From: Escherichia phage RB14 | Direction: 5' to 3' (one strand) | Length of the DNA: 64,000 bases | Sequence record: NC_012638.1 | Position numbers and translations under genes: made by a program | In this document: in pieces, positions 15,432 to 62,811 of the stretch | How the letters are laid out: every line of letters starts with the position of its first letter | Position numbering within the stretch: the first letter of the stretch is position 1 | The notes under the pieces: generated by a model | Told to the model about the DNA's origin: nothing | What the model saw: the letters and a program-made list of their open reading frames with translations, nothing else | Database searches by the model: none

Positions 15432-15635
15432 TCATTTTGAATGCTCTATAATTAATTTTAAGGCTTTTTCACTGACAAAAATTTCATCAGGACCTTCTTC
15501 TACAACCCAATCAACCATACGAAGCTGATTAGATAAGAGCTCGTATGTGAGCTCTTTGTCATAATTTTTAAATAGCTGGTCAATACGTTTCTTGCGGGCT
15601 TTCTTAAGCTGGCGTTTATTTAAACGAGCCATCAA
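15432..15635 (-). CDS. hypothetical basic protein, 67 aa
   Basis: ORF table. Confidence 0.45.
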   Translation of the reverse strand: MMARLNKRQLKKARKKRIDQLFKNYDKELTYELLSNQLRMVDWVVEEGPDEIFVSEKALKLIIEHSK

Positions 15636-16150
15636 TAACCTCGGTCTTGACGAGCGAAATTTTCAGCATTTTTCAGATAATAAAGTTTAAAGATTTCTTC
15701 AGCTGACATTCCAAGAGCAATGAATTTATTCATGAAAAAGTGAAATTGATCAATCAGTTCAAATTTAATTTCAAGTTGATCTTCAGGAGATAAATCTTGA
15801 ATTTTCTTGGATTGCATTTCAGAATAACGTTTCTTCCAAGGTTTCCATACAGCAGAAGCTTCTTTTTCACCATTACTCATACCGCCAAGAGAAGTATATA
15901 GCTCGCGAGTTTCGTCTGCGATATAATCGTCTTGGTTTCGCAACCAAGCAAGAACTTCTCCTGCAGTTTCAAGTGAATCAGGATGACGATTTGTTTCTGG
16001 TTTATCATTAGCCAAACGAATCTGTAAATGCCGCTGCATATCAAGCATAACCTGCAGTGGGTCAATATTGTGCATAATATTCTCAGCATATGCACGAGTT
16101 GCTTTATCAACACCTTCGATCAAATGAGCACATTCATTAAAGTGAGCCAT
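15632..16150 (-). CDS. 56: dCTP pyrophosphatase gp56, about 172 aa from internal ATG
   Basis: position between soc and 61; the 203-aa table ORF has a hydrophobic 31-aa artefactual extension, the Met at 16148-16150 gives a T4-like length. Confidence 0.7.
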   Translation of the reverse strand: MAHFNECAHLIEGVDKATRAYAENIMHNIDPLQVMLDMQRHLQIRLANDKPETNRHPDSLETAGEVLAWLRNQDDYIADETRELYTSLGGMSNGEKEASAVWKPWKKRYSEMQSKKIQDLSPEDQLEIKFELIDQFHFFMNKFIALGMSAEEIFKLYYLKNAENFARQDRGY

Positions 16151-16221
16151 TATTTTTCCTTTCAATTCATGGATTAATAGATTAATTATACAATAAATAT
16201 ATAAAGCAATAAGGAGGACAT

Positions 16222-16422
16222 ATGGTACAAAAATTAATGGCACTTGTTAATGCCATCAAAGGTAATAAAAAGCGTATAGCTTTTACTATTTCTGCTATGG
16301 TAGGAATTTTACTCTGGAACTTTATTCTATCACCTGTTGCAATTGCACATGGTATTAATATTCCAGTAGTTACTCTTGATACATTCGTAGATTTAGCATT
16401 TGCTTTAGTTGGGTTAATTTAA
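16222..16422 (+). CDS. small hydrophobic membrane protein on the plus strand, 66 aa
   Basis: AAGGAGG Shine-Dalgarno 4 nt before the ATG; fills the 268-bp gap between genes 56 and 61 without overlapping either. Confidence 0.5.
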   Translation: MVQKLMALVNAIKGNKKRIAFTISAMVGILLWNFILSPVAIAHGINIPVVTLDTFVDLAFALVGLI

Positions 16423-17447
16423 ATCTTGGCATATTTAGATAGCCGCATTTTAGCCATCAACCCCTGTGCAATATTATTTTTCATATATTCCATAATTTGT
16501 TCAGGGGTTGCACCTTCCTTTCTAATCATATCATTAACATCTTTTGATTTCCAGGGAGATTTATCCCAAAACATAACCCTTTCTCCTGCATCAACTAATT
16601 TAGTCATTCGTTTGATAGTGTCAGGATGACGAGGTTCATTATCTAAGACCCACACTCGTCTATCTTTAAATGGAACAATTTCTAGGTCTAATTGACCACC
16701 CGTAATAGCTATACCATTTTCAATAAAAAGTGAATCTATAGGTCCTTCTAGAACATATACATCACCATCTTTAACTCGTTCGACTCCATAGATTTTTGTT
16801 GCCTCAGGATAAGCTTTAATGGTGATATATTTTTGAGGAGCATTTTTCTTTAATGCACGTCCTTGAAAAGACTCAGCTTTTCCATTAGCATTATAAATTG
16901 GAATAACAAGACGAGGCTCAGATATTTCCTTTTTATATGTTCCCGGTGCTATGCTATTAACCAATTTAGGCCATTCGGTTGTAAACCAAAGATATTTCCA
17001 TTTATCCTTTGGAATACAACGAGCTTTTACATATTTTATAATTGGATGGTCTTCCGCCAGTTTATCTAATCTAACACATGACGGAAGAGATTTAATTATT
17101 TTCTTCTCAGGTTGTTTAGGAAGTTCTTTAGGTTTTTCTACTGGACGACTTTTACCTTTTTCTTTTCTTATTTCAAAGATATACTCACGATATAAATCAG
17201 GTTCAAACTCCTTTAAATATATTCCGATTGGTGCATGATAGTTACAGTTATAACAATGAATATTTCCTTCATTATTATCACCATAATACCATCCACGAGC
17301 TTTATTCTGGTCGGTTTTTGAATCTCCACAAACAGGGCATCTAAACCGCAATTTAAAAGTTGAACTATTATTTACTTGTGTGAATTTAGGTAAATGAGCT
17401 AATGCACGATACGCAAACTCATTATCAATCCAAGGTATTGATGACAT
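16419..17447 (-). CDS. 61: DNA primase gp61, 342 aa
   Basis: zinc-binding CPVCGD...CYNC motif and TOPRIM core; 342 aa as in T4. Confidence 0.9.
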   Translation of the reverse strand: MSSIPWIDNEFAYRALAHLPKFTQVNNSSTFKLRFRCPVCGDSKTDQNKARGWYYGDNNEGNIHCYNCNYHAPIGIYLKEFEPDLYREYIFEIRKEKGKSRPVEKPKELPKQPEKKIIKSLPSCVRLDKLAEDHPIIKYVKARCIPKDKWKYLWFTTEWPKLVNSIAPGTYKKEISEPRLVIPIYNANGKAESFQGRALKKNAPQKYITIKAYPEATKIYGVERVKDGDVYVLEGPIDSLFIENGIAITGGQLDLEIVPFKDRRVWVLDNEPRHPDTIKRMTKLVDAGERVMFWDKSPWKSKDVNDMIRKEGATPEQIMEYMKNNIAQGLMAKMRLSKYAKI

Positions 17448-17450
17448 TCT

Positions 17451-17615
17451 TTACTCTTCTTTTTCTTTAGATTCCTCTTTCTTCTTTTTAGGAATCTGTT
17501 CAGGGCCTTTATTTACTACAGCACCTGATGTTGTTCCAGTAGAGATATTTTCAGGATTACCACCTGAATCTCCAGCAACCATATCTTCTTTAATAAATTC
17601 TTTATATGTTTTCAT
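17451..17615 (-). CDS. small protein with capsid-targeting-like N-terminus, 54 aa (not in ORF table)
   Basis: my translation MKTYKEFIKEDMVAGDSGG...; GAGGT Shine-Dalgarno; position equals T4 61.1. Confidence 0.4.
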   Translation of the reverse strand: MKTYKEFIKEDMVAGDSGGNPENISTGTTSGAVVNKGPEQIPKKKKEESKEKEE

Positions 17616-17616
17616 A

Positions 17617-17973
17617 TTAACCTCTATTCATAAAAGCATTAAAAATTTGGTCATCAATAGACGGTGCAGTAATATTTTCTGCATCATTTAGCAAATCATT
17701 AATTTCATCAGATAGCATAACACATGTACCTTTATTTCCTGTAATTGTTACTGCGCAATTACGAACGTTTTCTTTATTAAATTTTAGGTTAATATTTTCG
17801 TAATGAAAATCCTTTAATGCTGAATATATTTTTAAAATAAAATTATCTTTTACTACAATAAACCCAACCTCACTATTAAAACGCGGTTCATGGAAACTGT
17901 AATAAACCTTTTCATCTATAAAATCGTATGAAATTTTTTCCATTTTTAAATATGAAAATTCAGAACTATACAT
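17617..17973 (-). CDS. hypothetical protein at the 61.2 position, 118 aa
   Basis: ORF table; position between primase and spackle. Confidence 0.5.
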   Translation of the reverse strand: MYSSEFSYLKMEKISYDFIDEKVYYSFHEPRFNSEVGFIVVKDNFILKIYSALKDFHYENINLKFNKENVRNCAVTITGNKGTCVMLSDEINDLLNDAENITAPSIDDQIFNAFMNRG

Positions 17974-62337: not shown

Positions 62338-62811
62338 TTATTTGAACGATTTAACGTACTGAATAGAACCTTTACTATTCACAAAGGCAATTTTACCATT
62401 TTTGTTATACATGGTAGCAGTACGTTGATAGCCATAAGTTTGTTTACCAGATTGATAACCAACTAATGCAAAATTATCTTCACCCATTTTATTCTGTTTA
62501 GCACGAATGCGTTCATGGCCATGTGCCATAAGAACCTTAGCATCACCTGTTGCAATGGATCGACGAGTTTTTTCATCTTCAACTGTATTAACAAAGTCGT
62601 CAAATGAATCAAATTTAGCATGAGATTTATTATACAGTTTTCCATCTACTGCATAATTATATCCTTGTACATCCATCTCAACTTCTGTACCATCATCCAA
62701 TACAGCAGTGATTTTCTGTCCTTTTTTAAATTTCAAAAGATCAGTAAAAGATTCAGCAATAATTTGAGAATTAATAGCTGCTTCAGTAATAAATTCTTGA
62801 TATGTTTTCAT
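62338..62811 (-). CDS. capsid internal protein with capsid-targeting sequence, 157 aa
   Basis: N-terminus MKTYQEFITEAA matches the T4 internal-protein targeting sequence; locus next to e as for ipII/ipIII. Confidence 0.65.
   Translation of the reverse strand: MKTYQEFITEAAINSQIIAESFTDLLKFKKGQKITAVLDDGTEVEMDVQGYNYAVDGKLYNKSHAKFDSFDDFVNTVEDEKTRRSIATGDAKVLMAHGHERIRAKQNKMGEDNFALVGYQSGKQTYGYQRTATMYNKNGKIAFVNSKGSIQYVKSFK

Follow-up and report, generated by a model that had tools for sequence, protein, structure and literature searches.

Gene 61.1 of T4-like phages encodes a small protein resembling the maturation junction and N-fist of gp23, the major capsid protein

Upstream of its DNA primase gene, the genome of Escherichia phage RB14 (NC_012638.1), a Tequatrovirus (T4-type), contains a short open reading frame (ORF) that corresponds to gene 61.1 of phage T4. 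It was analyzed within a stretch of 64,000 nucleotides, called the window in the following. Judged by its sequence, the gene product, gp61.1, is a free-standing copy of the maturation junction in gp23, the major capsid protein, together with the N-fist and the beginning of the N-arm; a Lys-rich tail comes after these. The part preceding the junction looks like the capsid-targeting sequence (CTS) of the T4 internal proteins. The literature searched contains no interpretation of gp61.1 as a protein that bears a CTS and mimics the maturation junction and N-fist of gp23 throughout the T4-like phages. A possible interpretation, to which we assign a probability of roughly 40%, is that the head-assembly machinery treats gp61.1 like the gp23 N terminus or like an internal protein, i.e. 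that it docks on the scaffolding core of the prohead and is cut by the prohead protease gp21 after Glu10.

The likeness to gp23 was seen in pairwise as well as in profile comparisons. In BLASTP, residues 2–38 of gp61.1 aligned with residues 57–93 of T4 gp23 with 43% identity over 37 residues (E 1e-8). When a 61.1 profile built from 19 diverse family members was aligned with a gp23 profile by hhalign, the match comprised gp61.1 residues 2–47 and gp23 residues 57–102 (probability 97.6%, E 2.8e-12). An hmmsearch against 177,635 distinct PDB sequences returned T4 gp23 as the only significant match (E 2.3e-10, residues 58–101); the mature form gp23* was matched at residues 2–36, and the next best protein had an E value of 0.04. 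The register of the alignment puts F7-I8-K9-E10|D11 of gp61.1 on F62-L63-T64-E65|A66 of gp23, which is the gp21 maturation cut. On the gp23 side, the matched stretch includes the propeptide's last nine residues. Codons 1–10 (17586..17615, minus strand), the CTS-like leader MKTYKEFIKE with a gp21-type I-x-E motif at its end, are aligned with gp23 56–65 (AQAFGSFLTE). Codons 11–36 (17508..17585, minus strand; DMVAGDSGGNPENISTGTTSGAVVNK) align with gp23 66–91 and appear as a copy of the N-fist. In codons 37–54 (17454..17507, minus strand; GPEQIPKKKKEESKEKEE) a Gly-Pro that is followed by a Lys run is aligned with the first part of the N-arm of gp23 (GPAVMGMVRR). The N-fist has been defined as residues 66–91 of gp23 (PMC7136217). 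This 25-residue element is special to T4-like capsids; it touches four subunits and helps to build the binding sites of Soc.

The likeness is not confined to T4. In eight genomes (T4, RB49, KP15, JS98, Roth77, DP45, SW69-9 and X20), 61.1 and the gp23 of the same genome were identical at 13–19 of 29 core positions. Pairs from the same genome scored slightly higher than permuted pairs (128 vs 123.9 ± 1.9, p ~0.013), a weak signal that is uncorrected for phylogeny. That it is weak can be understood from the high conservation of the N-fist itself. The possibility that 61.1 and gene 23 had recently undergone gene conversion was considered and rejected: for 14–19 shared residues the codon was identical in 4–10, which we judged to be about the level of codon bias. 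As the shared residues show no preferential sharing of codons, the likeness seems to be kept at the protein level and not to stem from recent DNA exchange. The resemblance to the N-fist also explains why some records name 61.1 automatically "major capsid domain-containing protein" or "major capsid protein". The latter label is misleading, because only gp23 57–102 are matched and gp61.1 is a protein of 54 residues with predicted disorder.

T4 ipII and ipIII start with MKTYQEFIAE|A and an internal-protein-like ORF of the window with MKTYQEFITE|A; MKTYKEFIKE is identical to these leaders in eight of ten residues. Its first 30 nucleotides are identical to theirs at 26–27 positions, with the same codon at every shared residue. 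When all six frames of the 64-kb window were searched for 10-mers with at most four substitutions from MKTYQEFIAE, only two were found, one in 61.1 and one in the ORF at 62338..62811, both of them at ORF starts. According to a review of Black's work (PMC9026906), residues 4 and 7 of the CTS are the main determinants of targeting, and residues 8 and 10 those of processing. At these key positions gp61.1 has Y4, F7, I8 and E10, and I8-K9-E10 fits the (I/L)-x-E motif of gp21. With these residues in place and with codons nearly identical to those of the ip genes, targeting to the capsid and cleavage after Glu10 are reasonable predictions. The initial annotation of the window, which was made from the DNA letters and a list of ORFs, had noted the resemblance of the N terminus to the internal-protein targeting sequence, and in this it was right. 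It had not noted the main feature of the protein, a likeness that continues beyond the cut and takes in the N-fist of gp23.

The 30-nucleotide CTS-coding stretches at 17586–17615 and 62782–62811 (both minus strand) and those of T4 ipII and ipIII are nearly identical. The extent of this identity, and the use of the same codons at the shared residues, suggest that the leader might be a recombining DNA module common to 61.1 and the internal-protein genes of T-even phages.

The ORF itself occupies positions 17451..17615 on the minus strand and has 54 codons with an ATG start and a TAA stop (17451–17453); the protein is MKTYKEFIKEDMVAGDSGGNPENISTGTTSGAVVNKGPEQIPKKKKEESKEKEE. Direct reading of the DNA gives a GAGGT Shine-Dalgarno sequence (17620..17624, minus strand) four bases before the ATG. 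The TAA stop of the ORF upstream of 61.1 (17617–17619, minus strand) lies between the GAGGT and the ATG, one base from the latter. The initial annotation had described a 54-residue ORF with this GAGGT between the primase gene and the ORF at the 61.2 position, which is indeed present. It had also called the ORF unannotated, and that holds only with respect to the cutoff of the ORF table it worked from. Comparison with T4 gene 61.1, which it had proposed as a check, leaves a known and named gene: 53 of 54 residues are identical to gp61.1 of T4T, the sole difference being Tyr instead of Phe at position 4. The T4 product is UniProt P39228. The protein matched PHROG 1823 (phrog_1823, function unknown) over positions 1–54 of 54 with an E value of 7e-34, and 508 phage records match the region at 90–99% DNA identity, most of them with the ORF annotated and several with the name "61.1".

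In a codon-level comparison with 17 distinct relatives, the median ratio of non-synonymous to synonymous substitution rates (dN/dS) was 0.13. Five synonymous and one non-synonymous substitutions separate the gene from T4 61.1, and five synonymous and no non-synonymous ones separate it from the closest contig. The ORF is T4 gene 61.1, a genuine coding gene on which purifying selection acts. This dN/dS and its conservation across 1431 phage records rule out a pseudogene or an ORF that arose by chance. In Pfam and NCBIfam no family matched gp61.1 or its long form (see below). AlphaFold2 predicted the protein of the window to be mostly disordered; the predicted local distance difference test score of the short form was 61, and disorder was predicted for the gp23-like part of the long form, too. 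The predicted disorder of gp61.1 fits a protease substrate.

By tblastn, 61.1 was found in the mentioned 1431 phage records, which comprise T4-like phages of Escherichia, Klebsiella, Acinetobacter, Aeromonas, Vibrio, Serratia, Proteus and others. When 1.84 billion representative proteins were searched exhaustively with a profile, 51 clusters of the family were found. In all 51 a Glu stands at the position aligned with gp23 E65; the P3 residue is Leu or Ile in 33 and hydrophobic in 46 of them. The family core reads [hydrophobic]-x-E | x-M-V-A-G-D-x-G-G-...-I-A-x-G-x-T-S-G-x-V-...-G-P-...-KKK, and several members have L-K-E-A-E-V-S-G-D, which is almost the gp23 junction. The Lys-rich run extends across the family, with K44 invariant in one family alignment. 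The mature peptide of the T4 type would have seven Lys and nine Asp or Glu (net -2); other lineages end in strongly basic KKKRKK tails.

What precedes the core is modular. Short forms of 50–70 residues (PHROG 1823) have in most cases an N-terminal leader K-x-F-x-x-F-(V/I/L), and long forms of about 120–185 residues (PHROG 2086) have a conserved helical domain of about 105 residues in its place; the same LxE and N-fist core follows in both. A few metagenomic forms reach 237–251 residues, and two of these (247 and 251 residues) have a second leader-like motif, "FKQFVE". In a metagenomic T4-like contig (L041:4001-4756) and in P0037 and P0058, the Lys run is followed by M-x-E-x-x-x-F-K-x-F-V/M-E and then by a domain of about 95 residues; the full-length 247- and 251-residue forms also carry the N-terminal domain, the LxE and the N-fist-like core. 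The layout of these extended forms resembles a small polyprotein with protease-type sites, or a fusion of 61.1 to a downstream CTS-bearing gene. Two T6-type relatives (P0002 and P0004) have a 62-residue variant with the C-terminal tail KKKKRNLKKKKSKNVINTLD instead of KKKKEESKEKEE. This variant looks like the result of a frameshift in the run of Lys and Glu codons, which would read into the start of the primase gene.

How could such a protein be used? Since gp61.1 combines the targeting residues of a CTS with a gp21 motif in its leader, the head machinery would be expected to treat it like gp23 or an internal protein. It would be made early, co-transcribed with the primase gene. The aromatic residues 4 and 7 of the leader would dock it on the scaffolding core of the prohead, and gp21 would cut after Glu10 at the I-x-E of residues 8–10. 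The product would be an N-fist-like peptide of 44 residues. This peptide might remain with the capsid or the DNA, settle into sites that bind N-fists, or leave the prohead by diffusion.

Several observations weigh against this interpretation. At P1', the residue after the presumed cut, gp61.1 has Asp where gp23 and the ip proteins have Ala. In the T4 type the mature peptide would be net acidic, whereas internal proteins are basic, and the long-form members of the family do not have the CTS-like leader at all. Scaffold fragments exit through pores of the capsomers, and a disordered peptide of 44 residues could do likewise. No late promoter (TATAAATA) was found in a search near 61.1. In T4 its RNA was classed "early" and its protein class given as "NA", and gp61.1 is missing from the list of quantified proteins of the T4 whole-cell proteome (PMC9697503 supplements). 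Knock-down of T4 61.1 by CRISPRi-ART was scored "Not Fit" (PMC11879866 supplement), and in HIDEN-SEQ transposon insertions were obtained at 13 of 13 sites, giving the class "Non-essential" (bioRxiv 10.1101/2025.11.20.689424 supplement). T4 hence grows without 61.1 in the laboratory, so that the function of the gene is accessory. Early transcription is no objection to packaging, because the RNAs of ipI, ipII and ipIII belong to the "early" class as well (PMC9697503). The predicted product of 4.5 kDa has few tryptic sites and would be easily missed in proteomics. In the literature searched there was no report of gp61.1 in virions or of its cleavage by gp21, and with regard to function this literature gave gene lists only.

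The genomic context has to be considered before other interpretations are discussed. The neighbors of 61.1 in the window are the primase gene, an ORF at the position of 61.2, sp, 61.4 and dmd. In 21 viral contigs and 8 reference phages, too, the gene was found upstream of the primase gene and downstream of helicase gene 41. The gap to the primase gene is 3 nucleotides in T4-type phages and 38–47 nucleotides in other genera; RB49 and KP15 have two intervening ORFs. The interval between gene 41 and 61.1 holds different combinations of dmd, 61.4, sp and 61.2-like genes, and in Aeromonas phage SW69-9 and the KVP40-type vibriophages the order is simply 41 - 61.1 - 61. 61.1 is present in all T4-like lineages that were examined, in contrast to the variable genes dmd, 61.4, sp and 61.2, and for this reason it is not a typical member of the island. 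Although located at the edge of the anti-toxin island, it is a family-wide conserved gene and not island cargo. The location in an anti-defense cluster that the initial annotation had emphasized is thus correct as far as the neighbors are concerned, but 61.1 is the constant gene at the primase-proximal edge and does not belong to the variable part. A promoter-like site is present upstream of dmd, with scores in the sigma-70 and terminator scan that are not above chance, and the scan found no terminator between dmd and 61. This places 61.1 in a presumed transcription unit from dmd to 61.

One might suspect from this position that gp61.1 acts against host defense without ever being packaged. As a cytoplasmic decoy it could compete for gp21 or soak it up, or it could bind a host factor that recognizes the gp23 N terminus, and thereby blunt immunity that senses capsid maturation. 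Protease-triggered CBASS is an example of such immunity: cleavage of an LPE loop in CdnG by T4 gp21 has been published to activate it. The disordered peptide with its conserved LxE site, the early operon beside known anti-toxin genes and the dispensability on laboratory hosts, which is expected of a counter-defense gene, would also suit this role. Yet no link of 61.1 to a defense system has been reported, neither the full N-fist nor the Lys-rich tail would be needed, and the presence of 61.1 beside the primase gene in every T4-like lineage is unlike the patchy occurrence of dmd, 61.4 and 61.2. We therefore regard this explanation as unlikely. Its broader form, a substrate or epitope decoy serving the whole family by absorbing stray gp21 or by blocking sensors of capsid maturation (CBASS CD-NTases or sensors of the gp23 N terminus), appears more doubtful still. 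In a variant of the decoy explanation the gp23 junction would be the origin of the internal-protein CTS, and 61.1 would have formed the evolutionary link between them. The initial annotation had instead seen a candidate for a tiny packaged effector, i.e. the processed peptide would stay in the head with the DNA, enter the next host and act there against a defense system. There is a precedent in IPI, an anti-restriction protein that bears a CTS; the leader of gp61.1 is CTS-like, and the Lys-rich run found across the family could hold the peptide on DNA. However, the conserved part is a copy of an element of the capsid lattice and not an effector-like domain, the mature peptide of the T4 type is net acidic, and gp61.1 is conserved in the family whereas the known internal proteins vary between lineages. 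Neither is there a report of its detection in virions in the literature searched. With a protein that went unquantified in T4 proteomics, a gene that tolerates knock-down and insertions and a 44-residue product that could leave together with scaffold fragments, the idea of an effector has found no support, and we consider it improbable.

The N-fist copy could also serve the capsid itself. A free N-fist peptide might bind to mature capsids and fill vacant N-fist sites near the gp24 vertices or the portal, where the usual N-fist from an adjacent capsomer is missing, and stabilize the lattice similarly to Soc. The N-fist touches four subunits and contributes to the Soc sites, the N-fists that face the portal are disordered (PMC7136217), 61.1 is non-essential like Soc and Hoc, and the slightly higher similarity of 61.1 to the gp23 of the same genome would be in line with such a contact, although this co-variation is the weak, phylogenetically uncorrected signal mentioned above. 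The extra density mentioned in two T4 capsid papers is only helical and located under gp24, and neither paper mentions an unassigned density resembling an N-fist; lattice filling is thus quite improbable in our view. Finally, the peptide might not matter at all. In this case translation of 61.1 would only couple ribosomes to the primase gene (gene 61; 16419..17447, minus strand), its downstream neighbor, and the likeness to gp23 would be the relic of a partial duplication. The ATG of gene 61 follows the stop of 61.1 after 3 nucleotides, and the last codons of 61.1 are purine-rich, just at the place where the ribosome-binding site of gene 61 should lie. But a leader ORF of this kind agrees poorly with purifying selection on the amino acids (dN/dS 0.13), with a motif conserved across 51 clusters and with a likeness to gp23 that is maintained at the protein level without shared codons. 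It also agrees poorly with the wider gaps in other genera, the intervening ORFs of RB49 and KP15 and the existence of long forms of 150–250 residues. This is the least probable of the explanations considered here. Handling of gp61.1 by the head-assembly machinery therefore remains the interpretation we favor, tentatively and with the reservations given above.

Some further features of the window touch on these neighbors. With 118 residues, the ORF at the 61.2 position (17617..17973, minus strand) is shorter than T4 61.2 (208 residues), and its match to AdfA, the anti-DarT factor (PF23813, profile positions 113–211 of 211, E 8.8e-8), is confined to the C-terminal half of that protein. Both genes are found in some relatives such as teqhad. 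The ORF may be a truncated or alternative AdfA. It is variable cargo and does not belong to 61.1. On the other side of the primase gene, in the region 15632–16422, a plus-strand ORF of 66 residues (16222–16422), apparently the counterpart of T4 dam.1, stands alone between a dCTPase-like ORF (15632–16243, minus strand) and the primase gene. This region contains no ORF for a dam methyltransferase; in T4T, dam sits between 56 and 61. The second CTS-bearing ORF of the window (62338..62811, minus strand) is located right downstream of the lysozyme gene. It is internal-protein-like, has 157 residues and starts with the canonical CTS MKTYQEFITE|A. It corresponds to neither ipII nor ipIII of T4, and NCBIfam gave no meaningful match. 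We consider it a candidate for a lineage-specific internal protein, and possibly its product is an injected anti-defense protein.

Few of the small T4 ORFs without an assigned function have, like 61.1, been kept in every T4-like lineage examined. The sequence of 61.1 now provides it with a concrete biochemical identity that can be tested: a CTS, a prohead protease site and a complete gp23 N-fist. Processing and packaging of gp61.1, if they occur, would add a new part of very small size to one of the best-studied virus heads. 61.1 also ties the CTS, which is used in T4-based protein delivery and vaccine engineering, to the end of the gp23 propeptide, and this would suggest a binding partner for the CTS. 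If instead gp61.1 is a decoy, a new type of counter-defense would emerge in which a phage mimics its own maturation substrate. Should neither packaging nor the decoy hold, misleading annotations of 61.1 as a major capsid protein would still be corrected.

Among known systems, the genes dmd, 61.4 (tifA) and 61.2 (adfA) are closest to 61.1 in position. Like 61.1 they are small, dispensable in the laboratory and located in the early unit between 41 and 61, but they have no sequence relationship to 61.1, which persists where they are absent, and for 61.1 no affected defense system was found in the literature searched. With IPI, IPII, IPIII and Alt, which carry a CTS and are processed by gp21, gp61.1 shares MKTY.EFI.E, nearly identical codons and, as with the ip genes, an early RNA. 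The internal proteins are, however, basic, globular and hypervariable, whereas gp61.1 has 54 residues, is a presumed copy of a capsid segment and is conserved across the family. It is also unlike them in sitting in a cluster of replication genes and in having Asp and not Ala at P1'. With gp23, finally, gp61.1 has the cut site in register and the core G-D-x-G...I-A-x-G-x-T-S-G-A-V...G-P in common in all lineages compared. The remainder of the propeptide and the whole HK97-fold body with its P, A and I domains are present only in gp23. At the place of the Lys-rich tail of gp61.1, gp23 runs on into the N-arm and the Gol region.
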